Counted from the stretch's first letter, positions 2 through 41,379 are shown. The stretch is DNA of 64,000 bases from an uncultured bacterium (GCA_949300515.1 CASGEP010000001.1:6740-70739); one strand, 5' to 3'. Program-made: numbers and translations. Notes: a model not told the origin generated them from the sequence alone.

Positions 2-670
2 GCGGCATATGATGCGACATATGCTGACTTGAGTCTGAAACGTCTGGCAGAAGATGTTTCGTACGATTTAAACATAGAATCTGCCGACCTGCTTGCCGAC
101 TTACAGGTACTCTGGAATGCTGCAGCACAAAGGAGCGAAACAATAAAATATACGATATACAAGCTCTCAAACCCTGATGAAAACAAGCCCGATGAGAATA
201 TTTTGAAAAAAATTATTAAACCTATTGCAAGCTTTTCAACACTTGCAGGCACCGCGCTGAGTTCAAACCCTTATATGGCATCGGGCGCATTGATTGGCGG
301 CGGACTGCTGGGCGCGCTTGTAAAGGATGATAAAGATATTAACTACAAATTTACAAAAGTAAGCGATGCGGATATGGTTCTTTTGGTGCGAAAAATTGAC
401 GATTTACAAAAGAAACTCTTAAATCTTTATATAGATTACCTTACAAAACGCGAGTTAATGGCGATGACACTTGACAACCTTGAAAAAAGGCGCGAGATTT
501 ACCGGCAGTCGCAAAAGGCGCCAAAAGAGGAGCTTATTATAGCGGACGTATACTACAGAAATGCGCAAAATGCCGCAAAAAAAGCCGAGTCAGAGTTTTG
601 GGCATCAAGAATGATACTTGAAAACCTCGTAGGCTCTGAAGTTTTGGCGCAAATAGAAGAGAAAAAATAA
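2..670 (+). CDS. hypothetical protein, 5' end outside window
   Basis: The frame is open from nt 2 (AAYDATYADL...), so the TTG at 29 is probably internal. It has a Gly-rich hydrophobic patch (GALIGGGLLGALV) followed by a K/E-rich helical C-terminus. No family recognised. Confidence 0.5.
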   Translation, partial: AAYDATYADLSLKRLAEDVSYDLNIESADLLADLQVLWNAAAQRSETIKYTIYKLSNPDENKPDENILKKIIKPIASFSTLAGTALSSNPYMASGALIGGGLLGALVKDDKDINYKFTKVSDADMVLLVRKIDDLQKKLLNLYIDYLTKRELMAMTLDNLEKRREIYRQSQKAPKEELIIADVYYRNAQNAAKKAESEFWASRMILENLVGSEVLAQIEEKK

Positions 671-1018
671 CTATTTGCTGACTTTTATTATCCACTTTAT
701 ATTTAAGTCGGTATTTTGAAAGACTTTATTTAAGTCAGGAAGATTTCCGTAATGATTTACACTTATTGCAAGTTCTTCAAAACCGTGCGTGCTGAGGCTC
801 TGACCGCTGCACTCCTGCCAGCCTTCCGGTATATTATCACCGTAAAACAGCACAATCGTCCCCACGGGAACGCCATCACCCATGCCGCCTACAATTTTAA
901 CCTGCGGCGGCGGTTCTTTTACTTTTTTTGTCATCACAGGCGCCATAACAACCATTGCAACAGACATCAAAAGTATTACTATGAGCATTTCTGCAAGTGA
1001 AAAAGCCTTCGTCTTCAT
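671..1018 (-). CDS. prepilin-type N-terminal domain protein with C-terminal phage-tail-collar-like domain
   Basis: The N-terminus MKTKAFSLAEMLIVILLMSVAMVV fits the type IV pilin cleavage/methylation motif, with Ala instead of Gly at -1 and Glu at +5. A Pro-rich linker follows. The C-terminus GTIVLFYGDNIPEGWQECSGQSL...LPDLN resembles the tail collar domain consensus (G.I..F.G..P.GW..CdGq.L...LPDL). Confidence 0.7.
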   Translation of the reverse strand: MKTKAFSLAEMLIVILLMSVAMVVMAPVMTKKVKEPPPQVKIVGGMGDGVPVGTIVLFYGDNIPEGWQECSGQSLSTHGFEELAISVNHYGNLPDLNKVFQNTDLNIKWIIKVSK

Positions 1019-1059
1019 AAGCTTATTTTATCATTTTTACAATTTTGTGCAATATAAAA

Positions 1060-1536
1060 TCAGCCGTATAATTCTTTTGAACTATAATTTCTGATGTATT
1101 CAAGTATGGCGCCGCCTATTTCCTCTGTCGGGTCAAAATAAGGGCTGTTAGGGTAAAAAATTTGCTTTGCAAGCATTCTGTTGAGCGGACCAAAAGCATC
1201 GGGCACAAGAGTTTTTCTGTAAATTCCGCTCAGCATTACCTGAATATCTGGTGAATTTGAATTGTTAAATCTGCTTATTGCAGGGTAGAGCTTATCTATC
1301 CCTTCGACTTTGTTATCAAGCATTCTGTTTAATACATAGAGCGCTTCAAGCGCCGCTGCCTCGCTGTTTGTGGTTTTAAGCACATACTCAATCTGAGGCA
1401 GTGCATTTTTACCCTCGCTCACAATTTGGTTTACCTTGTTCTCATCAAAAAGACAATAGTTCGTGTTTGTGTTTGCTCTTTTGATATTATTTCCGAGATT
1501 TTGTATACAGTAGCACGTAATCGGATTAATTGCCAT
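1060..1536 (-). CDS. hypothetical protein, HEAT/ARM-like helical repeats
   Basis: 158-aa ORF with an AAGGAG SD 6 nt upstream of the ATG, 12 nt downstream of the preceding gene. The helical repeat-like sequence (NSEAAALEALYVLNRML, SPDIQVMLSGIY) matches no specific family. Confidence 0.6.
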   Translation of the reverse strand: MAINPITCYCIQNLGNNIKRANTNTNYCLFDENKVNQIVSEGKNALPQIEYVLKTTNSEAAALEALYVLNRMLDNKVEGIDKLYPAISRFNNSNSPDIQVMLSGIYRKTLVPDAFGPLNRMLAKQIFYPNSPYFDPTEEIGGAILEYIRNYSSKELYG

Positions 1537-1548
1537 AAATGCCGCTCC

Positions 1549-3069
1549 TTATGAATAAACAAACGGAGGTCCGTTTTTAATTTCAAGTAATATGTTATCA
1601 GCCATAACTTTCAGTTCCTCCGGCGCCTTGCCCTCTTTTCTTTTTCGCTCAAATTCTTCTATCAAAGGGGCAATTGCGCTTTCTTTTTTTGCTTTAAAGT
1701 TTTTAATCTCAACTTCAACCAGTCGTCTTTGAAGATTTAACTCTGTTTTTGCGTTTTCCTTGATTACTGTAACTTCCTTTAGCGCATCTGCGCCCTGTTG
1801 AGCTATATAACTTGCCGAACTCACGCCCGCCATAGCAAAAAACAAGTTCCTTAAGAAGGGATTATTGCTGTGTATCAGCCAGTTGTACAAATGTCCGCGG
1901 GTTTCGTTTAAATAGCAGTAGAAAAATGATTTTCCGCTCTCCGTACTCATTCCTGTGGGCGCATTTCCCCAGATGTTTTCTACATTGCTTGATACGTATG
2001 ATGCTATATCTTGAGCTTCTTTTTCGCTAAAACCTGCATTTTGCGCACACTCTGCGGCCATTTGCCTGCTTGCTCCCATCTTTATAAGGGTGTCTTTTAA
2101 AAGCTGCGCATCTTTTGTTTTATTGTTAATAATATCATTTAAAATATTTTGTTTTGTCGATTTAAAATTATCAATAAAACTCTCCTGTAGTTTGGCACCC
2201 TCTTTAAAGTTTTTAAAAGTAATGACGGCAAGCACCGCACCGAGGGCAAGCATTGCACCCGAAGCGGCTAAATACACAGAGATTGGACTCTTGCCTCTTT
2301 TTTTCTTCTCATCTTTAGGGTTTGATGTGAAATTAAAATGCCTGCTGAAAACTAAATCCTGCTCATTATTATTTCCGGCGGCATTTTCAAGCACTGTTTT
2401 AAAGTATTCGCCCTTTTGACTCAACATATTTCTCTGCAGTGTGAGCTTGCCCGAAAATGCCTTTGTTTCAACATCTATTAAGCTCTCTTGTAAATCTTTT
2501 TGAATGTCTGCTTCCTGTTTTTTAATCCAAATCTGTTTAACGCCTTCAACGAATTTTTTGGCACTAAGGGTGAGTGCGCTAAAGGCAAATATAGCTGCAG
2601 CGCTCAGGATATTTTGTCTGTTCGGATCGCGTAGCGCCATGTATGTGGCAAAGCCCGTTTCTTCAACGATATTCATATTCATGCCCATGGCGGGAAGCTG
2701 TTTTATAACAGGCTCGCTGAGATTTTTTTTGGCGGAATTTTTAAACACAAGACTCAAGAGTGCACTTATTGTAAATATTGCGCCTGTACTCAAAAACAGG
2801 GGCATAAGGGCTTTTTTTGTGTCAAAACCGTCCTTTTCTCCGTCGTTTTCGTGCAGAAAAGAGTCCAAACCAGTTTCCTTATCAGGTATTACAAGAGTAT
2901 TAAACATATCGTTCAAACTTGTTGAGTTATCCTTGTTATCTTTAATAAAGTTATTTACGACAACTCCCTCAAGTGTGGCGTTTTTCTGTTTGAGCTGGCG
3001 ATTTGTCAGGTATCTTGAGTTGATACTACTGTATCCAGGTGTTTGAGAGTTTAATTTCGGTTCCGACAA
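1549..3069 (-). CDS. hypothetical multi-pass membrane protein with long helical segments
   Basis: 506-aa ORF with a TTG start preceded by AAGGAAGAAG. Hydrophobic segments include ALMPLFLSTGAIFTISALLSLVF, ILSAAAIFAFSALTLSA and ISVYLAASGAMLALGAVLAVITF. The C-terminus is K/E-rich. No family recognised. Confidence 0.6.
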   Translation of the reverse strand: MSEPKLNSQTPGYSSINSRYLTNRQLKQKNATLEGVVVNNFIKDNKDNSTSLNDMFNTLVIPDKETGLDSFLHENDGEKDGFDTKKALMPLFLSTGAIFTISALLSLVFKNSAKKNLSEPVIKQLPAMGMNMNIVEETGFATYMALRDPNRQNILSAAAIFAFSALTLSAKKFVEGVKQIWIKKQEADIQKDLQESLIDVETKAFSGKLTLQRNMLSQKGEYFKTVLENAAGNNNEQDLVFSRHFNFTSNPKDEKKKRGKSPISVYLAASGAMLALGAVLAVITFKNFKEGAKLQESFIDNFKSTKQNILNDIINNKTKDAQLLKDTLIKMGASRQMAAECAQNAGFSEKEAQDIASYVSSNVENIWGNAPTGMSTESGKSFFYCYLNETRGHLYNWLIHSNNPFLRNLFFAMAGVSSASYIAQQGADALKEVTVIKENAKTELNLQRRLVEVEIKNFKAKKESAIAPLIEEFERKRKEGKAPEELKVMADNILLEIKNGPPFVYS

Positions 3070-3772
3070 TTTCTTCTTCCTTTTGTTTTGGGGTTAATAA
3101 CTTTCTGATGGCTTCTTTCAACTGTTCTATTTCAAAATTTTTAAATACGCTCATCTCATCTCTTATTTTTTCGTCTTCTTCGAATTCTTCATCAATTCCG
3201 AATATGGCAAAAAATCTTCTAAAGCGTTTTTTTAGTGTTTTAATTGAGTCTGAAATTTTCTTTTCAATAAAATTCTGTACTTCGCCAAGTACGGCGGTAA
3301 GCTTTTCCTGCACTTTAATCAATTCGGTTTTTATATTTTCTGCAAATGCGGCTATGTTTTTTATGGTGTCAGGCAGGTTTTTTACAATATTAATTAACGG
3401 TTTAATTATATTTTCCGAAATAGCACTAAATACTTTTGCTACAGGTTTTGGCAGAGCGTTTTGGATATTGTCCAGCACTTTTTGGGTAACTTCACTTATC
3501 CCCGCCAGCTGTTTTTGCAATTTTAATGCCATTTCGGCATTTTTGAGCATTACCTCCCGGGCGGCCTTGTCCATAGCCTCTGCCCGCTGCATTTGTTTCC
3601 ACTGGGCATAACATTCCTGATAAGTCATCTCACCGGGGCGCCTCGGTTCATCCGCTTTCCTGCTTGAACCGCCTCCGCCCATGCCGTTACATACGGGACA
3701 GGCACCAAGCGGCAGCCCGTGCGGGCAGGTATTAGCGCGAGAGTTATTAACCTGTGGTGAATATCCGCTCAT
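3026..3772 (-). CDS. hypothetical protein with N-terminal CxHx7CxxC motif and amphipathic helical repeats
   Basis: 248-aa ORF. The N-terminus contains CPHGLPLGACPVCNGMGGGG, a zinc-knuckle-like motif. The rest is repetitive amphipathic helix. It is the first gene after the riboswitch-like leader. Confidence 0.65.
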   Translation of the reverse strand: MSGYSPQVNNSRANTCPHGLPLGACPVCNGMGGGGSSRKADEPRRPGEMTYQECYAQWKQMQRAEAMDKAAREVMLKNAEMALKLQKQLAGISEVTQKVLDNIQNALPKPVAKVFSAISENIIKPLINIVKNLPDTIKNIAAFAENIKTELIKVQEKLTAVLGEVQNFIEKKISDSIKTLKKRFRRFFAIFGIDEEFEEDEKIRDEMSVFKNFEIEQLKEAIRKLLTPKQKEEEIVGTEIKLSNTWIQ

Positions 3773-3812
3773 AAAAAATTCCTTGTGCTATTTCACCGCA
3801 ACACAAGGAAAC
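3773..3812 (-). terminator. intrinsic terminator / SD-sequestering hairpin (expression platform of the upstream riboswitch-like element)
   Basis: The minus strand reads TTCCTTGTG-ttgcggtgaaatag-CACAAGGAA followed by TTTTTT and then the ATG at 3772. The only SD-like AAGGA lies in the 3' arm of the stem. Confidence 0.6.
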
Positions 3813-3840
3813 CTTTACTACCTGCAGTCGGTTTCCGCGA

Positions 3841-3935
3841 CTGACAAGGTGATATAAGTTTTCCGACTTTACGGCTGCGGCCCAGTTAAGGATTTTCACC
3901 TTATTTCCTTTTTGTAAGGTCATAGTATCACTAAC
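3841..3935 (-). promoter_or_regulatory. cobalamin-riboswitch-like aptamer (short, class-II-like), copy A
   Basis: The minus strand reads AAAGGAAAUAAGGUGAAAAUCCUUAACUGGGCCGCAGCCGUAAAGUCGGAAAAC. This matches the conserved Cbl riboswitch core (GGAA..GGUGAAA.UCC..CUGG.CCGCA.C.GU). The core is nearly identical to copy B at 20817-20902. The hairpin AAGG/CCUU in A is AGGG/CCCU in B, a compensatory change. The closing-helix boundaries are uncertain. Confidence 0.6.
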
Positions 3936-4051
3936 AGTTTTTCCCGTCAAATAAATATTCTCTTAAGTTAAGATATATTTATAAATTATTTACTCTCAAA
4001 AGTCGTAAAACAGCATGCTGCGGTATTTAACAGGGAAGTATAAAATTTACT

Positions 4052-4137
4052 TGCCGGTGGCCGGAGTCGAACCGGCACGTGGGGTGAACCACACCAGATT
4101 TTGAGTCTGGCACGTCTACCAATTTCATCACACCGGC
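4052..4137 (-). tRNA. tRNA-Leu(CAA): tRNA-Leu (anticodon CAA)
   Basis: Cloverleaf read by hand. Acceptor stem GCCGGTG/CACCGGC, anticodon loop CTCAAAA, long variable arm and T-loop GGTTCGACTCC. Confidence 0.93.
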
Positions 4138-4297
4138 AGGTAAAATTAAATTATTCATTTGTCAAATTAAATTCTGATTATTCATTTGTCAATCTGTCTG
4201 ATGTGATGAAATTGGTCTACATATTTTCTAAAACATGCTCCGCCTGTTTTGCATCACACCGGCAGGTAAATTAGATTATTCATTTGTCAAATTAAAT
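4126..4297. repeat. duplicated tRNA-Leu 5' end plus leader repeats
   Basis: The ~46-nt unit catcacaccggcaggtaaa(a)tta(a/g)attattcatttgtcaaattaaat occurs at 4126-4172 and 4252-4297. The 16-mer attattcatttgtcaa occurs three times (4150, 4177, 4275). Positions 4202-4220 are an inverted, imperfect copy of tRNA positions 4114-4132. Confidence 0.85.
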
Positions 4298-4312: not shown

Positions 4313-5764
4313 TTATTTTTCCAATTCTTTTTTGATAATTTCATTTAGCAATTTCGGATTTGCTCTGCCTTTTGTTTCTTTCATAGCCTGACCTACAAAA
4401 AATCCAAAGAGCTTATCTCTGCCGCCTTTGTAGGCTGCTACCTGCTCGGGATTAGCCTCGATTATTTTTCTTGCAACTTCTTCAAGAGCAGAAGTATCAG
4501 ATACCACGCTCAGACCCTTTTTCTCTACAAGTTCTGCGGCATCTTCGCCCGTTTTCAATATTTCAACTACAAGCTGTTTTGCAATATTATTTGAAATCGT
4601 ACCTTTGTCAAGCAGTTTAAGCAATTTGGCAAAGTTTTGAACGCTCAGTTTGGTATCATTAATTGCCGTTTTTTCTTCTTTCAGATAAGCGGCAATTTCG
4701 CCCGAGAGGAAATTTGAGGCAACTTTGGGATTTACACCCAACTTTAGGGCTTCATCGAAGAATAGCGCCGTGTCCATTTGATTTACAAGGACATTTGCAT
4801 CATATTCGCTCAATCCAAGTCCCATATACCTTTCGATTTTCTGCCCCGGAAGTTCAGGCATTGATTTTTTAATCTCTTCAATCCATTCCCTGCTTATTTC
4901 AAGAGGCATTAAATCCGGCTCGGGAAAATATCTGTAGTCATGTGCATCTTCTTTGCCGCGCATGGATGATGTTGTGCCGCTGTTATCATCCCACAGACGG
5001 GTTTCCTGTACAACTTCGCCGCCTTCTTCAAGTATTTCGGTTTGCCTTACAAATTCATACTCAATAGCTCTTTGAAGCGCTCTAAAGCTGTTTACATTTT
5101 TGATTTCCGCTCTTGTACCAAATTCCTTTTGCCCTTTAATTCTGACTGAAACATTTGCATCGGCGCGCATTGAACCCTCCTCAAGGTTGCCGTCGCAAAC
5201 GCCGATGTATCTTAAAATATTTCTCAACTGTTCAACGTATTCTCTTGCCTCATCCGACGAGCGCATATCAGGCTCGGATACAATCTCCAAAAGCGGCGTA
5301 CCTGCTCTGTTTAAATCCACAAGAGAATATGAAGAGCCGTAAAGCCCTGCGGCACCCGCATGCACAAGTTTCCCCGCATCTTCTTCAAGGTGTGCACGGG
5401 TTATACCGATTTTTTTATTTGAAATTTGCACCCAGCCGCCTACGCATATAGGTTCGTCAAATTGTGAAATCTGATAACCCTTTGGCAAATCAGGGTAAAA
5501 GTATTGTTTTCTGTCAAATTTACACCTGTTTGGAATTTGCGAGTTAAGCGCCAGACCTGTTAAAATACCCATTCTGACCGCTTCTTTATTTAAAACGGGC
5601 AAGACACCCGGCATGCCAAGAGTAATTGCGGAAGTTTGAGTATTTGGTTCCCTTCCAAACTCCGCACCGTCAGGCGCAAATATTTTTGTATTTGTCTTGA
5701 GCTGTGCGTGCACCTCAAGACCTATGACCATTTCATACTTTTCTTTCATATCCTCAAGCGACAT
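4313..5764 (-). CDS. gatB: Asp-tRNA(Asn)/Glu-tRNA(Gln) amidotransferase subunit B
   Basis: GatB hallmarks are present (YEMVIGLEVHAQL, C-terminal GatB/YqeY domain). The start was moved to the ATG at 5764, which has an AAGGAGA SD. The longer ORF to 5860 adds a hydrophobic non-homologous extension. Confidence 0.93.
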   Translation of the reverse strand: MSLEDMKEKYEMVIGLEVHAQLKTNTKIFAPDGAEFGREPNTQTSAITLGMPGVLPVLNKEAVRMGILTGLALNSQIPNRCKFDRKQYFYPDLPKGYQISQFDEPICVGGWVQISNKKIGITRAHLEEDAGKLVHAGAAGLYGSSYSLVDLNRAGTPLLEIVSEPDMRSSDEAREYVEQLRNILRYIGVCDGNLEEGSMRADANVSVRIKGQKEFGTRAEIKNVNSFRALQRAIEYEFVRQTEILEEGGEVVQETRLWDDNSGTTSSMRGKEDAHDYRYFPEPDLMPLEISREWIEEIKKSMPELPGQKIERYMGLGLSEYDANVLVNQMDTALFFDEALKLGVNPKVASNFLSGEIAAYLKEEKTAINDTKLSVQNFAKLLKLLDKGTISNNIAKQLVVEILKTGEDAAELVEKKGLSVVSDTSALEEVARKIIEANPEQVAAYKGGRDKLFGFFVGQAMKETKGRANPKLLNEIIKKELEK

Positions 5765-5907
5765 GTTATCTCCTTGCTTCAAGCTTTTTCTTAAATATAT
5801 CACAAAAATAATTATAAAAAAGTTAATAATTCTTAATATTTTTTGCCGTTTTGCGCACATTATTTTTGTTATTTGAGTTTATTAATATAAGGAAGTGGAG
5901 TAAAGTT

Positions 5908-6666
5908 ATGAGTTATCCTCTAAATTATCAACAACAGTATATGCCGGCTATGGTTCCGACAGCTTCATGCGGCGCGGTATCGATTAACATTATGAATCCT
6001 ACTGTCGGCTATACAAATCCGATGGGACATCAGCAGTATTACGGCGGCGTTTATCAGTATCCGCAGGCAAGCTATTACAGTCAGCAGCCCATGCAGATAC
6101 CCTACCCGATGAACTATAACAACAATATTAACAATAACTCGCTTAATGCTTTAAGCGATGATAACAATGCAGCTCCGACACCTCCCGCACCATCGGTTGC
6201 AACAGAGCCGAATAACACACAGCAGAGTGAAAAACAGGAAGAAGTAAGGGAAAAAATTCCCCTGACGGATGATTACATAAAATCACTGGAAAATTATTTA
6301 AACTCTCAAGACCCGAAAATCCGTCTGATGGCTGCAAAAGACGTGCTTGAAAGGTTTAAAGAGGATCCCTCAAGACAAAATGATGTTGCACTAACCGCAC
6401 TGTTAAATAAAATACTGCAGGACCCCAACTCTGCGGTACGGTTTTTGGGACTTGCTTCACTTGATGCGGGTTATGCAAAAGGCGACCAGCTAACAATTGA
6501 TATATTAAATTCAATCAAAAATAATACACAAAGCGAACATGGCGAAGACTCGCGGCTTGCCTCGCAAATTCTTCTGAGATTGAGCGCGGGCGACAAAGTT
6601 AAGTTTACGCCAAAAGATTCGCAAGCCGAACAGACAAACCAAAGTGACGTCAAGGAGGCTGCATGA
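5908..6666 (+). CDS. Q/P/Y/N-rich low-complexity protein with C-terminal HEAT-like repeats
   Basis: Start at the ATG at 5908, after GGAAGTGGAG. The N-terminal ~100 aa are Q/Y/P/N-rich (QQYYGGVYQYPQASYYSQQP, NYNNNINNN). The C-terminus has HEAT-like units (DPKIRLMAAKDVL, DPNSAVRFLGLASL). It is a paralog of 7265-8350 and shares the AVSINI motif. Confidence 0.7.
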   Translation: MSYPLNYQQQYMPAMVPTASCGAVSINIMNPTVGYTNPMGHQQYYGGVYQYPQASYYSQQPMQIPYPMNYNNNINNNSLNALSDDNNAAPTPPAPSVATEPNNTQQSEKQEEVREKIPLTDDYIKSLENYLNSQDPKIRLMAAKDVLERFKEDPSRQNDVALTALLNKILQDPNSAVRFLGLASLDAGYAKGDQLTIDILNSIKNNTQSEHGEDSRLASQILLRLSAGDKVKFTPKDSQAEQTNQSDVKEAA

Positions 6667-7124
6667 AAATAAACAGTGATATAGTACTGAATGTCGCTTC
6701 TAAAGCCGCCTCGGCACTTGCCGTTGCGGCAACTGCTTATGATGTGCACACTCTGGGTGTGAGAGAAGCCAAGATTAAGCGCGAGAGCAACTATGCGGAT
6801 GATTTCATAGCCCAGCAAATCGGTGCTTCAAAGTTAAATTATCCGAGTCAAAAACATAACGTCATGAAGCAGTGGATTTTAGATTTTCAATATCCCCTGC
6901 AAATATCCGAAATATGGGATGCCGCAAGCGGTTATGTTACGGGCGCGCTTAAGGGTATAGGGTACAATATTGCTACACTCGGCTTTAGCGCACTGGCTTT
7001 CTTTGGCAAGAAAGGCATAAGCAAAAAAGCGGGTCTGTTTGGTTTAGGTATTTCACTGGCATTGGATTTTATTAAAAACAGTACAAATATTTTTGAACGA
7101 ACGGACTATTTAAGACGGAAATAA
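6663..7124 (+). CDS. hypothetical small membrane protein
   Basis: ATGA start/stop overlap with the upstream gene. Hydrophobic segments include AASALAVAATAY, IATLGFSALAFFG and AGLFGLGISLALDF. No family recognised. Confidence 0.6.
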   Translation: MKINSDIVLNVASKAASALAVAATAYDVHTLGVREAKIKRESNYADDFIAQQIGASKLNYPSQKHNVMKQWILDFQYPLQISEIWDAASGYVTGALKGIGYNIATLGFSALAFFGKKGISKKAGLFGLGISLALDFIKNSTNIFERTDYLRRK

Positions 7125-7264: not shown

Positions 7265-8350
7265 ATGATACAACCGCAGTATTTTCAACAGGCATATCCC
7301 CAAACGCCTTCGGCAGTAAGCATTAATATCTACGAGCCTAAAAGCTATGCTTCTGCTCCAAATCAAGTACCTTACGGTTATACAAACGAGCTTTATTCAA
7401 TGCCCCAAAATTCTCTCTGGGCAGCACAACCTCAAGGATATGTACAATCTCCTCAGTACCAGCCAATGTACTACCCTATGCAGGGACAAATGCCCTACCA
7501 GCCCGCACAGGTAATAAATCAACAGCCGCAGGCATATTTCCCGCAGCAAACAGGCGTACAGGCTCCCATTCCGCAAGTACAGATTGCCCCCGTTGCACAA
7601 CAGCAAATGCCCCCGAGTGCAATCGAACAACCTCAAACCGTTGAAGCACAACAAACAAGTATGCCTTCTGTTGAACAACCCGCGGATGCACCGAAAGTTG
7701 ATACCGATACACTGATTGCCGACTTAAGAAGCCCCAACTTTACATCTCAAAAGGAAGCAATTACATCAATAGCTAACTTCACGGTTGCTTCCCCCGAACT
7801 GGCGCTTCAAGTTGCAACCGACCCCGTAAAACAGGCACTGGTTGACGTAATTAAATCAGACACAAGCAAACTTCCGGATTTAGCGGCTGAAAAAAGCGCT
7901 ATAGAAGAAAAACAACAAAAAGGCGAAAAACTTACCCCCGAAGAAGAAGCAACACTTCAAAAAACATCTCCGAAAATAGAAGCCGAAACAAATAAAGCAT
8001 TTGCAATGTTTTCATTAGCAATGGTACAAAAAATATCAAGAGATAATATCGCACAGTATGCGGAAAATCAAACCAAAAACGGCAATCCCGCACCGGCACA
8101 GCCTAATTTAAAAGACTTAATCGGTTATAACGAATTGTTAAACGTTCTTCAAAACGAACCTAACGCAGAATTGAAGATTGCCGCAATTCAAGCTATCCAA
8201 TACATGGCAAGACCGGAAGAAAACGCTCAGGTAGAAGAAATTTTAACTCCCCTGACAAACGATTCCGACCCGACGGTAAGCAAATTTGCAAAAGAAGCTA
8301 TTGCAAAACTCGGTCAGGCTCCTGCTCAAGAGAACACAAACGCAGCTTAA
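7265..8350 (+). CDS. Q/P-rich low-complexity protein with C-terminal HEAT-like repeats
   Basis: AAAGGAGA SD. The N-terminal ~140 aa are Q/P/Y-rich. The C-terminus carries HEAT-like units (EPNAELKIAAIQAIQYM, DSDPTVSKFAKEAIAKLG). Paralog of 5908-6666. Confidence 0.7.
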   Translation: MIQPQYFQQAYPQTPSAVSINIYEPKSYASAPNQVPYGYTNELYSMPQNSLWAAQPQGYVQSPQYQPMYYPMQGQMPYQPAQVINQQPQAYFPQQTGVQAPIPQVQIAPVAQQQMPPSAIEQPQTVEAQQTSMPSVEQPADAPKVDTDTLIADLRSPNFTSQKEAITSIANFTVASPELALQVATDPVKQALVDVIKSDTSKLPDLAAEKSAIEEKQQKGEKLTPEEEATLQKTSPKIEAETNKAFAMFSLAMVQKISRDNIAQYAENQTKNGNPAPAQPNLKDLIGYNELLNVLQNEPNAELKIAAIQAIQYMARPEENAQVEEILTPLTNDSDPTVSKFAKEAIAKLGQAPAQENTNAA

Positions 8351-17510: not shown

Positions 17511-18248
17511 CTAAATAACGTCGTATCCGTTTTTTATAAATTTATTTTTAATTTCTGACACAACCTCGCGCGCGGGTTCGCTGACGTCTAATTTATACTT
17601 TAATCCGAGCTTTTCCCACTTTTCAACACCCATTTTATGATAGGGCAAAAGCTCGATTTTCTCTATTATTCCTCTGTAATTATCCAAAAACAAAATTAAT
17701 TTGCCAATATAATCCTCATCCGTTGTAAAAGTCGGCACAAGCACCTGTCTTATTCTTGTTTTCTTATTTATTGAATACAAATAATCCAAAAACTCAAGCA
17801 CTCTTTTATTATCTTTTCCTGTCAGTTTAAGGTGCATATCGAAATCCAAATGCTTAATATCAAGCATAACAAGGTCGCAAAGGTCAAGCACACCCTTCAC
17901 ATCATCACTCAACTCAACATACCCGCAGGTATCAAGGCAGGTGTGAATATTTACTTCTTTTAGCATTTTAAATAAGTCCAGAGCAAACTTTGGCTGCACA
18001 AGCGGCTCTCCGCCCGACAGAGTAACTCCGCCGCCTGTGAAGTTGAAAAAGTCTTTGTACTTTAAAATATCCTGATATACGCTCTCAGCAGTCCTTGCAC
18101 CTAGCTGGTTTTTGAACCAAGTGTCAGGATTATGGCAATAAAGACACCTGAAGGGGCACATCTGCATGAAAATTACATACCTTACCCCCGGTCCGTCGAG
18201 CGTAGCGCCCGTTAAAACGGAATGAATATAGCCTAAAATTTCTGTCAT
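17511..18248 (-). CDS. pflA: pyruvate formate-lyase activating enzyme
   Basis: Radical SAM motif CPFRCLYCHNPDTW and glycine-rich GGVTLSGGEP. Directly downstream of pflB. Confidence 0.93.
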   Translation of the reverse strand: MTEILGYIHSVLTGATLDGPGVRYVIFMQMCPFRCLYCHNPDTWFKNQLGARTAESVYQDILKYKDFFNFTGGGVTLSGGEPLVQPKFALDLFKMLKEVNIHTCLDTCGYVELSDDVKGVLDLCDLVMLDIKHLDFDMHLKLTGKDNKRVLEFLDYLYSINKKTRIRQVLVPTFTTDEDYIGKLILFLDNYRGIIEKIELLPYHKMGVEKWEKLGLKYKLDVSEPAREVVSEIKNKFIKNGYDVI

Positions 18249-18269
18249 ATAAGTATTTTAATACAAATT

Positions 18270-18306
18270 GATACAAATAGGCGCAAGATTTTGCAATCCT
18301 GCGCCA
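18270..18306 (-). terminator. weak stem-loop between pflB and pflA
   Basis: The minus strand reads GGCGCAGGATT-gcaa-AATCTTGCGCC followed by TATTTGT. It may be a partial terminator or a processing site. Confidence 0.4.
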
Positions 18307-18324
18307 AATATTTGTTACCGTTTT

Positions 18325-20577
18325 TTAAAAACGACTGTGGAATGTCCTTGAAATAACATCCTCTTGCTGCGCTCTGGTTAGCTTAATAAAGTTTACGGCA
18401 TAACCTGAAACCCTTATGGTTAGCTGCGGATAATTCTCCGGATGATCCATGGCATCAATAAGTGTTTCTCTGTCAAGCACATTAACGTTAATATGCTGAC
18501 CCATATTTGACATATAGCCGTCAAGCATACCTTTTAAGTTATTGATTTTCTCATCCTGAGTTTTTCCCAGAGAATTAGGGATAATTGAGAATGTATTTGA
18601 AATTCCGTCTTTAGCGTGTTTGAAAGGTAATTTTGCAACAGAACACAATGAAGCAAGCGCCCCGCACTCATCTCTGCCATGCAAAGGATTTGCACCCGGT
18701 GCGAAAGGAACGTTTGCCTTTCTGCCATCAGGTGTATTGCCCGTTTTCTTGCCGTAGACAACGTTTGATGTAATTGTAAGTATTGACTGAGTTGCAATTG
18801 CATTTCTGTATGTCGGAAGTTTTTCAATTTTATTCATAAATTTCTCAACAAGTTTTGTTGCAATTTCATCAACCCTGTCATCATTGTTGCCGAATTTTGG
18901 GAAATCACCCTCTATTTCAAAATCAACGGCAATTCCCTGTTCATTTCTGACAGGTCTTACTTTTGCATATTTAATAGCACTGAGTGAATCAACCGTGACG
19001 GAAAATCCTGCAATACCGCAGCCTAACTTTCTTACCACATTTTGATCCATAAGCGCCATTTGCGCCTTTTCATAGTAATACTTGTCATGCATATAATGAA
19101 TGATATTAAGCGCATTAACATATGTTGAAGCAAGCCAATCCATCATAGAGTCAAATTTTTCAATTACTTCATCATAGTTCAAATACTCGGATGTGATAGG
19201 CTCAAACCCCTGTGCCACTTTTGCAAAAGACTTCTCATCCACCCCGCCGTTAATAGCATACAAAAGAGCTTTTGCAAGGTTGGCACGCGCGCCGAAAAAC
19301 TGCATTTCCTTACCGATAATCATAGGCGAAACACAGCAGGCAATACCGTAATCATCCCCGAACATCGGGCGCATTAAATCATCATTTTCATACTGGATTG
19401 ATGATGTGTTAATTGAGAGTTTTGAGCAGAATTTTTTAAAATTATCCGGCAAATTAACAGACCACAAAACAGTCATGTTGGGCTCCGGTGCAGGCCCTAA
19501 GTTTGTGAGCGTATGAAGCATACGAAAACTGTTTTTTGTAACAAGCGTCCTGCCGTCATCGCCCATACCGCCGATTGATTCCGTAACCCAGACAGGGTCG
19601 CCGCTAAAGAGTTCGTTGTACTCGGGAGTTCTTAAAAAGCGAACCATACGCAATTTTATAATGAAATCATCCATTATTTCCTGCGCTTCCTGCTCGCTCA
19701 GAGTACCGTTTTTAATATCTCTTTCACTGTATATATCAAGGAATGTTGAAACTCTGCCAAGCGACATGGCAGCGCCGTTTTGGTCTTTTATAGCCGCTAA
19801 ATACCCGAAATACGTCCACTGGACAGCTTCGCGGAAATTGTTTGCAGGCTTGGATATGTCATAACCGTAAGTCAAAGCCATTGTTTTCATAGCTTCAAGA
19901 GCCAAAATCTGCTCCGAGAGTTCTTCTCTTTCTCTGATTATGTCTGATGTCATATTTAAGCGGTCAGAAGAAGACTTTTCAGCCTGTTTTTCTTCAATCA
20001 GTCTGTCTATGCCATATAAGGCAACGCGTCTGTAGTCGCCTATAATTCTTCCTCTGCCGTAGGCATCGGGCAAGCCTGTTATAATCCCGCTTTTTCTGCA
20101 AGCGCGGATTTCGGGTGTATAAGCCTGAAAAACTCCTTCATTGTGTGTTTTTCTGTATTTTGTAAAGATTTCTTTTACTTTTTCATCTTCTTTTAGTCCG
20201 TATGCCTGACAGGATGCCTCAACCATTCTGTGACCGCCCCAGGGCATAATAGCTCTTTTTAGCGGCGCATCTGTCTGTAAACCGACTATAAGTTCATTTT
20301 CTTTATCAATGTAGCCTGCCGCATAAGCATCAATTTGAGACGGCGTAGACACATCAGCGTCCAAGAGCCCGTTATTTTCATGCTCTTTTTTCATTAACTC
20401 TTTTACCTGTGACCAGATATTAAGAGTCCTTTGTGTAGGCTCTGCAAGAAAACAGTCGTCGCCGAGGTATGGCGTATAGTTATTTTGTATAAAATCGACC
20501 ACATCTATTGTATCAGTCCATGCGCCGCCTTTAAAACCCTGCCAGCAAGGCAATGTTTTATCCAATGTACATTCCAT
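18325..20577 (-). CDS. pflB: formate C-acetyltransferase (pyruvate formate-lyase)
   Basis: Active-site Cys pair (IACCVSPM) and C-terminal glycyl-radical motif RVSGYAVNF. 750 aa. Confidence 0.95.
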
Positions 20578-20816
20578 TATTGTCTCCTTTTACATGTTTA
20601 GTTTTTGTGTTGTTAATTTGTTAGTGCCTTTAATGACACGGATAATATGCGTTATAAGACATACAGTAAAATTATATTTTAGTTAATGTTTCTTGTCAAA
20701 TTGTTAAGAATAAAGCATAGGTTAACTTTTGTAAAAACGTACATTTTTAAATATACACCGTTTGTTCTAAATTTTACAAAAATTATTAGCCCATGCCAAA
20801 AATATATTATAAACTT

Positions 20817-20902
20817 AATATAACAATTAAGGAAAGCAAGGGTGAAAGTCCCTCACTGGTCCGCAGCCGTCACAGTCGGAATGCTTAATTTGCAATTATA
20901 TT
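20817..20902 (+). promoter_or_regulatory. cobalamin-riboswitch-like aptamer (short, class-II-like), copy B, nrdDG leader
   Basis: Candidate closing helix AATATAA/TTATATT around AAGGAAAGCAAGGGUGAAAGUCCCUCACUGGUCCGCAGCCGUCACAGUCGGAAUGC. The GAGGAG SD and the ATG at 20928 follow within 25 nt. Confidence 0.6.
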
Positions 20903-20927: not shown

Positions 20928-23186
20928 ATGCAAAATGCACTCAACAACGGTGAAAATGTTGTTTCACTAAATTCACAGCTTGTAAACGACGCAATTAAAA
21001 AGGCAAGAGAAGGAAGTTTAGAGTTTAAAAATCAGGTAATCGACGCATCGCACGCCATACTTGAAAATGTTTTAATAGTGAAAAAAGACGGCACAAAAGA
21101 AAAATACAATGTGCAAAAGGTCGTGAGTGCCGTTAAAAAATCGGCGGCAAGAATGCTGATAGAATTCAGTGAAGATGATATCTCGAAAATTTGCAACTAT
21201 GTAAACAAAAATGTTGCAAATATGAAAAAAGACAGTATCAATATCCTTGAAATTCACAATATTGTTGAGAGTGCACTTGAAGAAATTAACCCCAAGGTTG
21301 CACAAAGCTACAGAAATTACCGCAACTACAAGACAGACTTTGTGCATATGCTCGATAAGGTTTTTCAGGAAAGCCAAAAAATAATGTACATAGGCGACAA
21401 GGAAAATTCAAACTCGGATTCCGCCCTTGTATCAACCAAAAGGTCGCTTATATTTAACCAGTTAAATAAAGAACTCTATAAAAAATTCTTTTTAACCGTA
21501 GATGACTTGCAGGCTATAAGAGAAGGCTACATATATATTCATGATATGTCAGCGCGCCGTGATACTATGAACTGCTGCCTGTTTGATGTTGCAGCCGTAT
21601 TAAAGGGCGGTTTTGAGATGGGCAACCTCTGGTACAACGAGCCAAAAACACTTGATGTTGCTTTTGATGTGATAGGCGATATTGTAATGGCAGCGGCAAG
21701 CCAGCAATACGGCGGCTTTACCGTTGCAGAAGTAGATAAACTGCTTGCCCCGTACGCTAAAAAGTCGTTTGATGCAAATTACGACAGGTACGTTTGCCTC
21801 GGTCTGTCATTTGAAAAAGCACGCGAAGAAGCGATGAATGACGTTAAACACGACTTTGAACAAGGTTTTCAAGGCTGGGAATACAAATTTAATACAGTAG
21901 CTTCATCGCGTGGCGATTATCCCTTTATCACCATGACCTTTGGTCTCGGCACGGGCGAATTTGAAAAAATAGCATCACTTACCATGCTAAAGACAAGAGA
22001 AGGCGGGCAGGGTAAAAAATCCTGCAAAAAACCGGTGTTATTCCCAAAACTTGTCTTTCTTTTTGATAAAGATCTCCATGGCGAAGGCTGCGAACTGCAC
22101 GAACTCTACAAGGCGGGCGTTGAGTGCTCTAAAAAAGCAATGTACCCTGACTGGCTGTCTTTAACGGGCGAGGGCTACGTTGCATCAATGTATAAAAAAT
22201 ACAAAAAAGTAATCTCGCCAATGGGCTGCAGGGCGTTTTTATCCCCATGGTTTGAACGCGGAGGCATGACAGCGGCAGATGAAAATGATACACCCGTTTT
22301 TGTCGGCAGGTTTAACATCGGCGCAGTAAGCCTGCATTTGCCGATGATTTTGGCAAAGTCGCGCAAGGAAAGCAAAGACTTTTACGAAGTTCTTGACTAC
22401 TACCTTGAATTAATAAGAAAGATCCACATAAGAACTTATGAGTATCTGGGCGAAATGCGTGCATCGGTAAATCCTCTTGCATATTGCGAAGGCGGATTTT
22501 ACGGCGGACATTTAAAACCGCATGATAAAATTAAGCCCCTGCTCAAGTCTGCGACCGCATCTTTTGGTATAACGGCGCTTAACGAGCTGCAAGAACTCTA
22601 CAACGGCAAGTCGCTTGTCGAGGACGGAGAGTTTGTACTTGAAGTTATGGAGTATATAAATAAAAAAGTCGCACAATTTAAAGAGGAGGACGGTAATTTA
22701 TATGCAATATACGGCACTCCGGCTGAAAGCTTGTGCGGACTGCAAGTACAGCAGTTTAGAAAAAAATACGGTATAGTGGATAAAGTCTCGGACAGAGGCT
22801 ATGTTTCAAACAGTTTTCACTGCCATGTGAGCGAAAACATTACACCGATTGAAAAACAAAATATTGAAAACCGTTTCTGGAATTTATTTAACGGCGGAAA
22901 AATCCAATACGTTAAATATCCCGTTTCATACAATACAAAAGCAATTGAAACACTGGTTTTAAGAGCTATGGATATGGGATTTTACGAGGGCGTTAACCTC
23001 TCGCTTGCCTACTGCGAGGACTGCGGACATCAGGAGCTGTCGATGGATTCTTGCCCTAAATGCGGCAGCCGCAACCTTACAAAAATAGACAGAATGAACG
23101 GCTACCTGTCATACTCACGCGTTAACGGGGATACGCGCTTAAACGATGCAAAAATGGAAGAAATCAAAGACAGAGTGAGTATGTAG
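20928..23186 (+). CDS. nrdD: anaerobic ribonucleoside-triphosphate reductase (class III)
   Basis: N-terminal ATP-cone (VKKDGTKEKYNVQKV). C-terminal Zn ribbon CEDCGH...CPKCGS. Glycyl radical motif RMNGYLS. Confidence 0.93.
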   Translation: MQNALNNGENVVSLNSQLVNDAIKKAREGSLEFKNQVIDASHAILENVLIVKKDGTKEKYNVQKVVSAVKKSAARMLIEFSEDDISKICNYVNKNVANMKKDSINILEIHNIVESALEEINPKVAQSYRNYRNYKTDFVHMLDKVFQESQKIMYIGDKENSNSDSALVSTKRSLIFNQLNKELYKKFFLTVDDLQAIREGYIYIHDMSARRDTMNCCLFDVAAVLKGGFEMGNLWYNEPKTLDVAFDVIGDIVMAAASQQYGGFTVAEVDKLLAPYAKKSFDANYDRYVCLGLSFEKAREEAMNDVKHDFEQGFQGWEYKFNTVASSRGDYPFITMTFGLGTGEFEKIASLTMLKTREGGQGKKSCKKPVLFPKLVFLFDKDLHGEGCELHELYKAGVECSKKAMYPDWLSLTGEGYVASMYKKYKKVISPMGCRAFLSPWFERGGMTAADENDTPVFVGRFNIGAVSLHLPMILAKSRKESKDFYEVLDYYLELIRKIHIRTYEYLGEMRASVNPLAYCEGGFYGGHLKPHDKIKPLLKSATASFGITALNELQELYNGKSLVEDGEFVLEVMEYINKKVAQFKEEDGNLYAIYGTPAESLCGLQVQQFRKKYGIVDKVSDRGYVSNSFHCHVSENITPIEKQNIENRFWNLFNGGKIQYVKYPVSYNTKAIETLVLRAMDMGFYEGVNLSLAYCEDCGHQELSMDSCPKCGSRNLTKIDRMNGYLSYSRVNGDTRLNDAKMEEIKDRVSM

Positions 23187-23187
23187 T

Positions 23188-23679
23188 ATGAATTATCATG
23201 ATATAACAACGGACGATATGCTCAACGGCGACGGTCTGAGGGTTGTTCTCTGGGTATCGGGCTGCACTCATCACTGCGACGGCTGTCAAAATCCGATAAC
23301 CTGGGATATAGCGGGAGGTTTGCCGTTTGATGAAAATGCGGAAAACGAACTTTTTGAAAAGCTTAACCAGCCCCACATCGCAGGCATTACATTCAGCGGC
23401 GGCGACCCGCTGCACCCTATGAACAGAGATGAAGTCTTGATGCTTGCAAAAAAAGTGCGAAACTTATACCCGAATAAGACAATCTGGCTCTACACGGGCT
23501 TTTTGTGGGAAGATATCTGCACGCTGGATGGAATTGAGTGTATAGATGTACTTGCTGACGGAAGATTTGAAAAAGATAAACTTGATAATAATTTACTCTG
23601 GGTAGGCAGTCCGAACCAACGCGTAATAGACGTCAAAACCAGCCTGCAGAGCGGAAAAGCAGTTTTGCATAAAAGTTAA
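23188..23679 (+). CDS. nrdG: anaerobic ribonucleotide reductase activating protein
   Basis: Radical SAM motif GCTHHCDGCQNP and GITFSGGDPL. Adjacent to nrdD. Confidence 0.92.
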   Translation: MNYHDITTDDMLNGDGLRVVLWVSGCTHHCDGCQNPITWDIAGGLPFDENAENELFEKLNQPHIAGITFSGGDPLHPMNRDEVLMLAKKVRNLYPNKTIWLYTGFLWEDICTLDGIECIDVLADGRFEKDKLDNNLLWVGSPNQRVIDVKTSLQSGKAVLHKS

Positions 23680-34041: not shown

Positions 34042-35487
34042 TTACACAATAGGCTTTGAGTCCTTTGTAAACTCGTTAATAGCCTTTGTTGCCGTCCTTA
34101 CATTGCTGATACAGTCGTTACCGCCGACACAGCCGCCTTCACAGCACATGACCTCAATTAAATTACCGAATTCGCACTCGCCTTTTTTGGCAAAACCTTT
34201 AAGTGCCCTTATTGATTCTTTGTTTATACCGTTTACAAGGTAAGGTTTAATTTCGCTTTTGCCGTTATCTGCAGCTTCAACGGATTTTGCAACACCGCCC
34301 GTTATACCGAAATTCCTTCCTTCGCGCGACGGTTCAACCTCATATTGAGTGCCTTCAAGCTCACTCAGTTCAATTTTGTGCGCCACAAACAGTGCGCCCA
34401 ACTCCTCATAGTTCATAACATAGTCTATATTATCATTTTTAAGAGCTTCACTCTTTTTTGCCACACAGGGAGAAATAAACACACTGATTGCATCAGGGTA
34501 TTTCTCTTTGCAAATTTGCGCAATATAGTAAGCGGGCGTTTTAGTTTCCGATCTGAAAGGTGCAATTTCGCCCAGGTGTTTATCAACAAGATTATTATAG
34601 CCGGCACAGCATGAGGTTGTCATAAACTTCTGACCGTTTTCAATTCTTTCCCTGAATTCCTCAGCCTCATTCAGCGCCGTAACGTCCGCACCTTGAGCAA
34701 CTTCAAGTACATCGTAAAATCCGCATTTTAAAAGCGCCGTTTTCAGCTGATAAATTGTACAAGGAAGCTGTCCCACAATGGAGGGAGCAATCATTGCCAC
34801 AACTTTTTTACCCTGTTTAATTCTTGTCAGGATGTCAATTATCTGGCTTTTTTCATGTATTGCGCCAAACGGACATGAACTTACGCACTTGCCGCAGGTT
34901 ATACATTTTTCAAAGTCTATCCTTGCATGTCCCTGTTCATCTTTTGAAATAGCATCCACGGGACATGCGTTTTCACATGGCACAACGATTTTTACAATTG
35001 CATGATATGGGCAGACCTGAATGCATTTTGTACAGTTTTTACATTTAGAGCTGTCAATCTGTGATTTACCGTTAACAATTGATATTGCGCCGAATTTACA
35101 ATTTTCAATACACGGGCGCGCAACACAGCCCTGACACAAATCCGTTACAAAAATTCTGTTTGGAACACAGCCCTTGCATGCCGATTCAAGCACAGTCAGA
35201 GTTTGCTCATCCGGTTTTTCACGCTTTTGTGCTTCTTTTGCATAGTTTGAAAGCAAAACTCTCTCGTCCGAACCTTCAATTGGAAAACCCAAAGTCGCAA
35301 TTATTCTGTTTCTTAAAATTTCTCTTTCTTTATATATACAACACCTGTAGGGCACCTCATGTCCCTTAGGGCGCATTTCAAAAGGTATTAATCTTGTATT
35401 TTCTTCAAAATTGTCTGATAAAAACGCTTTTATTGTTTTAACCAAAATTTCTTTCTTTAAATGTGTTGCCTGATTATTCTTGTCCAT
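34042..35487 (-). CDS. [FeFe] hydrogenase, group B-like, with N-terminal multi-[4Fe-4S] ferredoxin domains
   Basis: H-cluster motifs are TTSCCAGY (L1, Ala in place of the usual Pro), SPCVAKKSE (L2) and EVMCCEGGCVGG (L3). Several CxxCxxCxxxCP motifs lie upstream. Confidence 0.8.
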   Translation of the reverse strand: MDKNNQATHLKKEILVKTIKAFLSDNFEENTRLIPFEMRPKGHEVPYRCCIYKEREILRNRIIATLGFPIEGSDERVLLSNYAKEAQKREKPDEQTLTVLESACKGCVPNRIFVTDLCQGCVARPCIENCKFGAISIVNGKSQIDSSKCKNCTKCIQVCPYHAIVKIVVPCENACPVDAISKDEQGHARIDFEKCITCGKCVSSCPFGAIHEKSQIIDILTRIKQGKKVVAMIAPSIVGQLPCTIYQLKTALLKCGFYDVLEVAQGADVTALNEAEEFRERIENGQKFMTTSCCAGYNNLVDKHLGEIAPFRSETKTPAYYIAQICKEKYPDAISVFISPCVAKKSEALKNDNIDYVMNYEELGALFVAHKIELSELEGTQYEVEPSREGRNFGITGGVAKSVEAADNGKSEIKPYLVNGINKESIRALKGFAKKGECEFGNLIEVMCCEGGCVGGNDCISNVRTATKAINEFTKDSKPIV

Positions 35488-35737: not shown

Positions 35738-35746
35738 TTCATCTCC

Positions 35747-38625: not shown

Positions 38626-38626
38626 A

Positions 38627-38872: not shown

Positions 38873-38995
38873 TTTACTATTCCTAATACATATACAGTAT
38901 AGTCTAAAGAGAGTATTTAAGCAATTTAATATTTGATTTTAGCTTTTGTGCGTGCAATAATCACCTTAGGGTTGTTAGTAAGTAAGGAGAAATAC

Positions 38996-39496: not shown

Positions 39497-39499
39497 ACA

Positions 39500-41368: not shown

Positions 41369-41379
41369 GAGAGGTAAAA

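Follow-up and report, generated by a model that had tools for sequence, protein, structure and literature searches.

Does a short conserved RNA in the genome of an uncultured gut bacterium respond to vitamin B12 (cobalamin), and if so, what are the proteins encoded behind it for? Cobalamin riboswitches rank among the most reliable pointers to B12 biology that is still undiscovered, and following them has led to several proteins that bind or transport corrinoids. In bacteria that do not produce B12, almost all genes in the regulons of these riboswitches code for corrinoid transporters, accessory proteins or B12-independent isozymes. The locus in question lies in a stretch of 64,000 nucleotides (nt) of DNA (GCA_949300515.1 CASGEP010000001.1:6740-70739; the window), in which a first-pass annotation made from the sequence had noticed a cobalamin-riboswitch-like leader in front of genes for four proteins, here called p248, p506, p158 and p115. 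We scanned both strands of the window; leader and operon are on the minus strand, from 3950 down to 671. Judged from the homologs of p248, the host belongs to the Gastranaerophilales (Melainabacteria), and the nearest genome locus in the p248 homolog search was that of Candidatus Galligastranaerophilus intestinavium with 83% identity.

The leader contains a minimal class-II cobalamin aptamer

The first-pass annotation had placed a cobalamin riboswitch core on the minus strand at 3935 to 3841, and the core AAAGGAAAUAAGGUGAAAAUCCUUAACUGGGCCGCAGCCGUAAAGUCGGAAAAC was present at this place and aligned to RF01689, the Rfam model for class-II cobalamin (adenosylcobalamin, AdoCbl-II) riboswitches. It had also called for a search with the Rfam cobalamin models. 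In this search, RF01689 matched 3852-3917(-) significantly with 34.4 bits (E-value 1.4e-6 in a local search and 2.5e-4 in the whole 64-kb window with both strands), which is below the gathering score of 36.5 bits, and in a permissive Rfam search RF01689 was the best member of its clan for the leader. Because the score is below the cut-off, the aptamer is overlooked by routine annotation; when the window was scanned with Rfam at the default gathering thresholds, only tRNAs were reported, and permissive thresholds were needed for riboswitches. The 38-nt core was found once in the window and in 0/100 shuffles. Thus, the core signal is far above chance.

All elements of the class-II core were detected, i.e. 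J3/4 (GGAAA), P4 with the T-loop L4 (GUGAAAnUC), P5-L5, P6 with L6 (GUAAAGUC), and J6/3. Among 23 distinct leaders, this core was near-invariant while the encoded proteins have diverged to ~35% identity. The helices (P3 with 3 bp, P4 with 5 bp, P5 with 3 bp and P6 with 3 bp) were examined in the 23 distinct aptamers, and 97.5% of the cells were paired, with compensatory changes in four pairs; by contrast, in slid-register controls only 27-56% were paired. One of the compensatory pairs is in P3 and three are in P4, whereas P5 and P6 do not vary and so carry no information on pairing. The outer pair of P3 was AU in 13 aptamers, GC in five, UA in one and GU in one.

A P1 helix and a J1/3 internal loop were sought in the leader and not found, and positions 10-17 of the model, which correspond to J1/3 and part of P3, are deleted. 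Upstream of the aptamer, we detected the promoter-like arrangement TTGACG-17-TACTAT, and in most leaders a TGn plus TAnnAT box is located 12-13 nt 5' of GGAAA. This arrangement places the predicted transcription start at ~3915, 4-6 nt ahead of P3, so that P1 and J1/3 as described for class II (PMC6158498) would have no space. In total, the covariance-model match and the compensatory changes confirm the leader as a genuine but minimal class-II cobalamin riboswitch aptamer.

The window contains a second, paralogous aptamer of this type that also scored just below the cut-off (34.2 bits; E-value 3e-4 window-wide and 1.8e-6 locally). It ends 33 nt upstream of nrdD (20928-23186; NRDD and ATP-cone domains), shares the core with the operon aptamer in an alignment, and keeps a 5-bp P3 as well as a J1/3-like stretch. 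The nrdDG genes are classical members of cobalamin riboswitch regulons, and nrdD encodes the class III, B12-independent ribonucleotide reductase. The presence of the same type of aptamer before nrdD supports that a near-threshold aptamer serves this organism as a B12 sensor; moreover, it implies that a B12-dependent reductase is encoded elsewhere in the organism. An nrdG-like open reading frame (ORF; 23188-23679) follows nrdD. In the nrdD leader, the expression platform is proximal to the Shine-Dalgarno (SD) sequence (GCGAC near GAGGAG) and there is no terminator.

The aptamer is conserved together with a three-gene core

The four ORFs of the operon are separated by -44, 12 and 41 nt, the same ORFs and spacings as in the first-pass annotation. 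We compared 16 genome loci, four metagenome loci that were identified by the RNA pattern alone, and seven distant operons that were identified via their proteins. At 16/16 genome loci, the same four genes and a convergent conserved neighbour were present, and the core GGAAAUAAGGUGAAAAUCCUUAACUGGRCCGCAGCCGUAAAGUCGGAAAAC was almost invariant. Metagenome contigs were scanned with a degenerate form of the aptamer pattern, which gave four sites with a near-invariant core, all of which (4/4) precede homologs of p248; among these four sites, none was before another gene. In the seven distant operons, the proteins of which are 33-43% identical, the first three genes were found in the same order and together with the aptamer. 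Orthologous leaders had RF01689 scores of 42.1 (L023), 38.6 (L016) and 38.1 bits (L021), i.e. above the cut-off, and of 33.8-36.0 bits in the others.

Thus, p248-p506-p158 is the conserved regulated core behind the aptamer at every one of 28 related loci examined, the proteins of which are as little as ~35% identical, while the fourth gene varies and may be the pilin-like p115, an HD_5 phosphohydrolase, a 342-amino acid (aa) protein of no assigned function, or missing altogether. p115 is present in the main clade, L016 and L027, and is absent or replaced elsewhere. Accordingly, the operon first described as four genes holds as a trio, and the gene for the pilin/tail-collar protein is a lineage-specific addition. 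Recurrence of the motif in homologous operons of relatives had been named beforehand as a test of the riboswitch, and the aptamer was found at all loci examined.

The expression platform combines a terminator, an occluded SD sequence and a candidate kissing loop

The aptamer is followed by a middle hairpin at the position of P13 in class-II switches. Its 7-nt loop CGGAAAC (3831-3837) is conserved as CGnnnAC across loci, and GCG(G) in this loop is complementary to L5. The stem sequence varies among loci yet pairing is kept, with compensatory changes in 8/10 pairs. A terminator scan identified a second hairpin at 3810-3779 followed by U6 (3778-3773), which adjoins the ATG at 3772. A simple scan gave 12 pairs in its stem; the nine solid pairs are UUCCUUGUG/CACAAGGAA. 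The 3' arm includes AAGGA at 3784-3780, the only SD-like sequence of the leader. All of this agrees with the first-pass description of a 9-bp stem and U6 that end before the ATG at 3772 and bury the only SD-like AAGGA. The hairpin and the U-run are kept in 24/25 leaders, the exception being L022, and the 3' arm of the terminal hairpin contains AAGGA, GAGGA or AGGGA ~7 nt ahead of the AUG. The full model of the OFF state had 93% of its pairs formed and ten compensatory pairs, a result reached by 0/500 shuffles. The L027 leader (5094-5294) has a much longer terminal hairpin and no recognisable 3' strand of P3.

The terminator loop UUGCGGU (3795-3801) is complementary to GCCGCAG in L5. In the main clade, L5 (GGRCCGCAGC) has a perfect complement of 5-9 nt in the terminator loop, e.g. 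GACCGCAGC with GCUGCGGUC in L006, and RNAalifold paired the columns of L5 and the terminator loop unprompted. The seven pairs of this kissing helix were 98% paired in 16 leaders, and at one of them A/G in L5 varies with U/C in the loop (AU/GU/GC), i.e. there is partial covariation. In distant leaders, the complement of L5 (UGCGG) is located in the loop of the middle hairpin instead; L025 has a compensatory pair here (GCGCA/UGCGC, L5 with the middle loop), and L018 and L024 have an additional GGCCC in the terminator loop opposite GGGCC in L5. Based on this computational evidence, L5 would form a kissing loop with a loop of the expression platform. In class-II switches, docking of L5 on L13 is the regulatory contact (PMC6158498). 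The first-pass account of the switch stands for the terminator and SD platform but had overlooked the complementarity between L5 and the terminator loop.

Two sequences in the aptamer could act as antiterminator strands, and both are sequestered once the aptamer folds. The first-pass annotation had proposed that the 5' AAGGAA pairs with UUCCUU, and AAGGAA in the aptamer is indeed identical to part of the 3' arm of the terminator. For the aptamer 3' core GGAAAACUU, which comprises the GG of P6, J6/3 and the 3' strand of P3, the best duplex was at the junction between linker and 5' arm in 19/25 leaders. Compensatory changes accompany this pairing (J6/3 AAAA with UUU, AACA with UGU in L023, AAUA with UAU in L025 and L026, and CUU|CUC with AAG|GAG), and RNAalifold paired GGAA with UUCC. 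The two alternatives are equal in duplex energy, with the 3'-core pairing better in 13/25 leaders and 5' AAGGAAA with UUUCCUU better in 12/25; for this reason, duplex energy was dropped as a criterion for choosing between them. Thus, the 5' pairing is possible, but the 3'-core pairing is its energetic equal and is the only one for which compensatory changes were seen.

We infer the mechanism of the switch as a whole from these elements. When no ligand is present, the aptamer would be open, and the 3' core GGAAAACUU and/or the 5' AAGGAAA would capture the linker and the base of the terminator 5' arm (AAGGUUUCC); transcription would read through and the SD sequence would be free. When a corrinoid is bound, the aptamer would close and the 5' arm of the terminator would be released, and L5 (GCCGCAG) would kiss the terminator loop (UUGCGGU) or the middle loop. 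Docking would stabilise termination as well as occlusion of the SD sequence, and the operon would be turned off. In total, we conclude that the leader is very probably a B12-responsive OFF switch on the operon.

The core proteins have conserved motifs and no recognised relatives

p248 has an N-terminal module that is invariant in alignments, TCPHGLPxGACPxCNGMGGGG...PGEMxxxEC (C16, H18, C25, C28, E48, C54), and is followed by amphipathic helices that are poorly conserved. Of 1.84 billion representative clusters, only 152 contained the module, and these belong essentially to this family alone. We also looked for fusions of the module among the 1.84 billion representatives, and none was informative; matches with multiple stretches were of low complexity, and the single fusion to OEP (P0444) looks chimeric.

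p506 has ~4 hydrophobic helices and very long coiled helices in an AlphaFold2 (AF2) model with a predicted local distance difference test score (pLDDT) of 66. The motif FYCYLNETRGHLYNW and the C-terminal ADNILLEIKNGPPFVYS are invariant in alignments. In the model, short strands from the loops between transmembrane (TM) helices TM1-TM2 and TM3-TM4 are paired; this pairing and the positive-inside rule suggest that both loops are periplasmic and both termini cytoplasmic. p158, the best conserved of the three core proteins, is confidently modelled as a small ARM/HEAT-like solenoid (AF2 pLDDT 92), the fold matches of which were generic ARM, HEAT and CID structures without significance (TM-score 0.45-0.62, E>=0.057). 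Paralogy of p158 with the HEAT proteins of 271 and 361 aa encoded nearby was considered, and no relation was detectable. Two of the three core proteins appear to be cytoplasmic.

For p248, p506 and p158, no family above threshold was found in Pfam, NCBIfam or PADLOC, and profile searches against the Protein Data Bank (PDB) with all three core families gave nothing significant. Similarly, Foldseek searches of the PDB with p506 and p158 gave no match at E<=0.001. Sub-threshold helical-bundle matches for p248 and tape-measure-like matches in PHROGs were regarded as noise, and matches of the p506 fold to ClyA, TTYH and chemoreceptors were disregarded (TM-score <=0.2). p115 matched the Collar domain (PF07484) with 33.1 bits (cut-off 24). 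Its prepilin motif scored just below the cut-offs of PF07963 (N_methyl; 18.9 vs 21.2 bits) and TIGR02532 (16.1 vs 16.3 bits), and its hydrophobic N terminus (AFSLAEMLIVI) matched ComGC with an E-value of 2.6e-5. Hence, the early description of these proteins as unrecognisable was borne out, except for the pilin N terminus and the Collar domain of p115.

The locus shares features with known cobalamin riboswitches and uptake operons

The leader has the same core order and conserved nucleotides as class-II switches (RF01689, formerly 'AdoCbl-variant'; env8 hydroxocobalamin, PDB 4FRG/4FRN). It also has the T-loop L4 and a purine-rich J6/3, has no peripheral P6 extension, would be regulated via complementarity of L5 to a downstream hairpin loop, and has a copy in the window that precedes a gene for a B12-independent isozyme, nrdD. 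By contrast, P3 is shortened from 5 to 3 bp; P1 and the internal loop J1/3 are missing or at most vestigial, which we attribute to transcription apparently beginning just before P3; L5 is longer (GGRCCGCAG vs ~4 nt); and in the main clade L5 has its complement in the loop of the intrinsic terminator, a hairpin in which the SD sequence is sequestered as well, with an extra covarying hairpin in between. Class II was first reported from marine metagenomes (PMC2864571), whereas this leader occurs in gut Melainabacteria and the copies in the window are just under the Rfam cut-off. Four features make it a variant in our classification: P1 and J1/3 were sought and not found, P3 is minimal, L5 is enlarged, and, in this clade, the kissing partner is in the terminator loop with an extra hairpin in between. 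With class I (RF00174, the Escherichia coli btuB leader), the leader shares the clan CL00101, the ligand family, the OFF logic and the L5-L13 type of kissing loop; however, class I has a large P6-extension domain and a full B12 box, while the element here is ~55 nt and best fits the class-II model.

In Bacteroides, cobamide-uptake operons behind cobalamin riboswitches encode novel B12-binding lipoproteins of the surface and of vesicles (PMC12751083). The operon studied here is similar in that lineage-specific proteins without a family are co-transcribed behind a cobalamin riboswitch in a gut bacterium. It differs in that the trio has no similarity to these proteins in sequence or, for p506 and p158, in fold, and in that the operon has no TonB-dependent receptor and no ATP-binding cassette (ABC) or ECF component. 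Likewise, no likeness to BtuB, BtuF/BtuCD, ECF-CbrT, BtuM, BtuG/H or CbiMNQO was found for the trio by Pfam, NCBIfam and PDB sequence searches or for p506 and p158 by fold. p115 resembles type IV pilins and pseudopilins (ComGC-like) as well as PF07484 proteins in its prepilin-type N terminus and Collar domain; it differs from pilins in being very small (115 aa), in its sub-cut-off pilin scores, and in lying outside the conserved regulated core. In the literature library that was searched, nothing relevant was found on the operon, on B12 biology of Melainabacteria or on pilin-linked cobalamin riboswitches.

Features and genomic surroundings

Table 1. Positions in the window of the leader elements, the operon genes and the nrdD aptamer.
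Feature	Position	Strand	Basis or description
-35-like hexamer TTGACG	3945..3950	-	promoter scan; conserved as TTGACG/TTTGCA in main-clade loci
extended -10 TGnTACTAT	3922..3930	-	promoter scan
class-II cobalamin (AdoCbl-II, RF01689) aptamer	3852..3917	-	full-model Rfam alignment, 34.4 bits
P3 AAG / CUU	3908-3910 / 3856-3858	-	3 bp
J3/4 GAAAU		-	aptamer core
P4-L4	3887-3903	-	
P5-L5 CUGGGCCGCAG	3875-3885	-	
P6-L6	3863-3874	-	
J6/3 AAAA	3859-3862	-	
middle hairpin CCUUGUCAGUCG / CGACUGCAGG	3821..3849	-	P13 position of class-II switches
linker and first bases of terminator 5' arm AAGGUUUCC	3807..3815	-	candidate antiterminator partner of GGAAAACUU (3856-3864)
putative intrinsic terminator / SD-sequestering hairpin and U6	3773..3810	-	stem 3802-3810 with 3779-3787
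p248	3026..3772	-	N-terminal Cys/His module, then variable amphipathic helices
p506	1549..3069	-	membrane protein, ~4 TM helices; overlaps p248 by 44 nt
p158	1060..1536	-	small ARM/HEAT-like alpha-solenoid
p115	671..1018	-	prepilin-like N terminus and phage-tail-collar domain
paralogous AdoCbl-II aptamer	20814..20894	+	RF01689, 34.2 bits

Convergent with the operon, the window encodes at 29-670 (+) the C-terminal 213 aa of a secreted helical protein without a family match. Elsewhere, this protein is one of a pair of paralogous secreted helical proteins of ~292 aa, full-length copies of which are present in L001 (9103-10846, -), L028 (3214-4957, -) and L027 (8827-10592, -). The convergent protein is ~90% identical among main-clade loci, which exceeds the conservation of the operon itself. 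Downstream of the paired secreted proteins are genes for a pentapeptide-repeat protein and two GerE-type response regulators, and this neighbourhood is retained wherever the pilin-like fourth gene occurs.

On the other side of the operon, the region at 4123-4297, between gatB and the gene for tRNA-Leu (4051-4138, -), contains three copies of a 30-nt element with the promoter-like TTGACAAATGAATAAT. Moreover, the tRNA-Leu(CAA) region has its first 22 nt duplicated 126 nt upstream. These repeats could be the remnant of a duplication or an integration at the tRNA gene. Two proteins encoded at 5851-6666 (+) and 7265-8350 (+) have low-complexity N-terminal halves rich in Q, P and Y and C-terminal halves with HEAT repeats; they flank a 153-aa protein without assigned function, and the gene order is syntenic in relatives. 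A third tRNA gene, for tRNA-Ser (CGA; 43301-43390, +), was found by ARAGORN and the permissive Rfam scan and is missed by the default run at gathering thresholds. The regions 17511-20577 (-) and 34042-43137 encode pyruvate formate-lyase and its activase, several FeFe-hydrogenase-like proteins with a NuoF-like subunit, MFS transporters and three TolC-like OEP proteins, a gene context typical of an anaerobic fermenter.

Alternative explanations

The conserved leader might be protein-coding, as a 67-aa ORF (3747-3950) spans it and the gene calls of the p248 homologs P0002 and P0014 run through it as if it were an N-terminal extension of p248. However, orthologs differ by indels of 1, 2 and 4 nt, which disrupt every frame, and the variation is at paired stem positions, with compensation, and not at third codon positions; together with the match to the covariance model, this makes a coding function hardly credible, and the ORF was rejected on account of the indels and the stem covariation. 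More serious is the idea that the leader arose from a cobalamin aptamer and has lost the ability to sense corrinoids, having become a sensor of another ligand or a constitutive attenuator. The score below the gathering cut-off, the P3 of 3 bp and the absence of P1 and J1/3 are in line with such a loss; J1/3 is a key element for selectivity in class II (PMC6158498). Against it, the model-aligned core nucleotides are near-invariant though the proteins have diverged to 35% identity, orthologs exceed the gathering score, the same aptamer type precedes nrdD, and the complementarity to the L5 loop is maintained with compensatory change. We therefore consider loss of sensing improbable.

If the riboswitch is B12-responsive, the operon could still belong to another response to B12 scarcity: it might serve the envelope, adhesion or motility, or replace or assist a B12-dependent process in a non-enzymatic way. 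With their coiled helices, ARM repeat and amphipathic helices, the core proteins have the look of structural or scaffolding parts and not of transporters; the variable fourth genes encode either a pseudopilin or a phosphohydrolase of the HD_5 type; in several lineages, the operon has flagellar genes or response regulators as neighbours; and no energising component is encoded in the operon. By contrast, genes of no assigned function behind cobalamin riboswitches have, where tested, mostly turned out to encode corrinoid-binding proteins or transport accessories, and the invariant Cys/His motifs of p248 and p506 fit binding of a cofactor or metal better than a purely structural role. On balance, we regard this alternative as the main rival, if a somewhat unlikely one.

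Proposed function of the operon

The B12-type riboswitch is coupled to the trio tightly and since ancient times; from what is established for such riboswitches, this coupling points to expression under corrinoid scarcity. The trio is non-enzymatic in look, which argues against an isozyme, and does not look like a conventional transporter either. The single likeliest role, which we assign tentatively, is that of a membrane-anchored complex for the acquisition or handling of corrinoids. In this complex, p248 would provide a cytoplasmic Cys/His knuckle and amphipathic helices; p506 would be an inner-membrane protein with four TM helices and a Cys/His/aromatic motif in a probably periplasmic loop; the Cys/His motifs of both would be candidate sites for a ligand or a metal; and p158 may be an adaptor for the tail of p506. 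In the clade of the window, a pseudopilin with a tail-collar head, p115, would join the complex under B12 scarcity. The first-pass annotation had suggested corrinoid capture or handling or, alternatively, a B12-repressed envelope function, and the computation neither confirms nor refutes this suggestion.

Several observations weigh against a corrinoid-responsive switch on a corrinoid module. As for the RNA, the aptamer of the window scores under the Rfam gathering score, and P1 and J1/3, which tune ligand selectivity in class II, are absent, making the predicted ligand binding and specificity less sure and, from sequence, unproven. The L027 leader has no P3 3' strand, and the L022 leader (6827-7003), which probably exerts translational control only, has neither terminator nor U-run. 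The transcription start is a prediction, and because two downstream loops are complementary to L5, the acting loop is not distinguishable. The antiterminator duplexes are weak and not significant one by one (-4 to -7.7 kcal/mol; shuffle p 0.03-0.5 per sequence), and thermodynamically the leader is most stable with the terminator formed, so that switching must be kinetic. As for the function, no protein of the operon is similar to transporters, ATPases or known binders of corrinoids, and p506 has only ~4 TM helices in a mediocre model (pLDDT 66). Moreover, no corrinoid genes were found near the operon in eight genomic contexts, and no cob, cbi or btu genes in the annotated parts of the window, which make up most of its length.

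With these points in mind, we lean towards the explanation as a whole, i.e. an OFF riboswitch on an operon with a function in corrinoid handling, the function being its weakest link. Its most specific form holds that the trio is new corrinoid machinery that is unrelated to BtuB/BtuFCD, ECF and BtuG, is specific to Melainabacteria as non-photosynthetic relatives of the Cyanobacteria, is joined in some lineages by a pseudopilin, and is controlled by a P1-less class-II switch with L5 docking on the terminator loop; this form is possible but rather doubtful.

Significance

By sequence comparison, the riboswitch is homologous to a known class, while the trio is a module without a known relative. 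The RNA represents a compact natural class-II aptamer without P1 or J1/3 and with kissing complementarity to a terminator loop, and the leader may be useful for understanding and engineering minimal B12 switches. Moreover, the RF01689 threshold of Rfam shuts out a whole clade. Behind a riboswitch that evades standard annotation lies a module of three genes, kept throughout an entire order of uncultured gut bacteria and without any relative that could be detected elsewhere.

We suggest that the operon, although its function is as yet unproven, gives a well-founded starting point for new B12 biology in Melainabacteria, and that the trio may belong to the means by which these bacteria cope with scarce B12, unrecognised so far. 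Should the module have no part in corrinoid handling, a non-metabolic envelope function would be under the control of a B12 riboswitch, which is rarely seen. If it does handle corrinoids, a diderm lineage that is sister to the Cyanobacteria would have its own, new way of acquiring B12, and the module would have a bearing on competition for B12 in animal guts.

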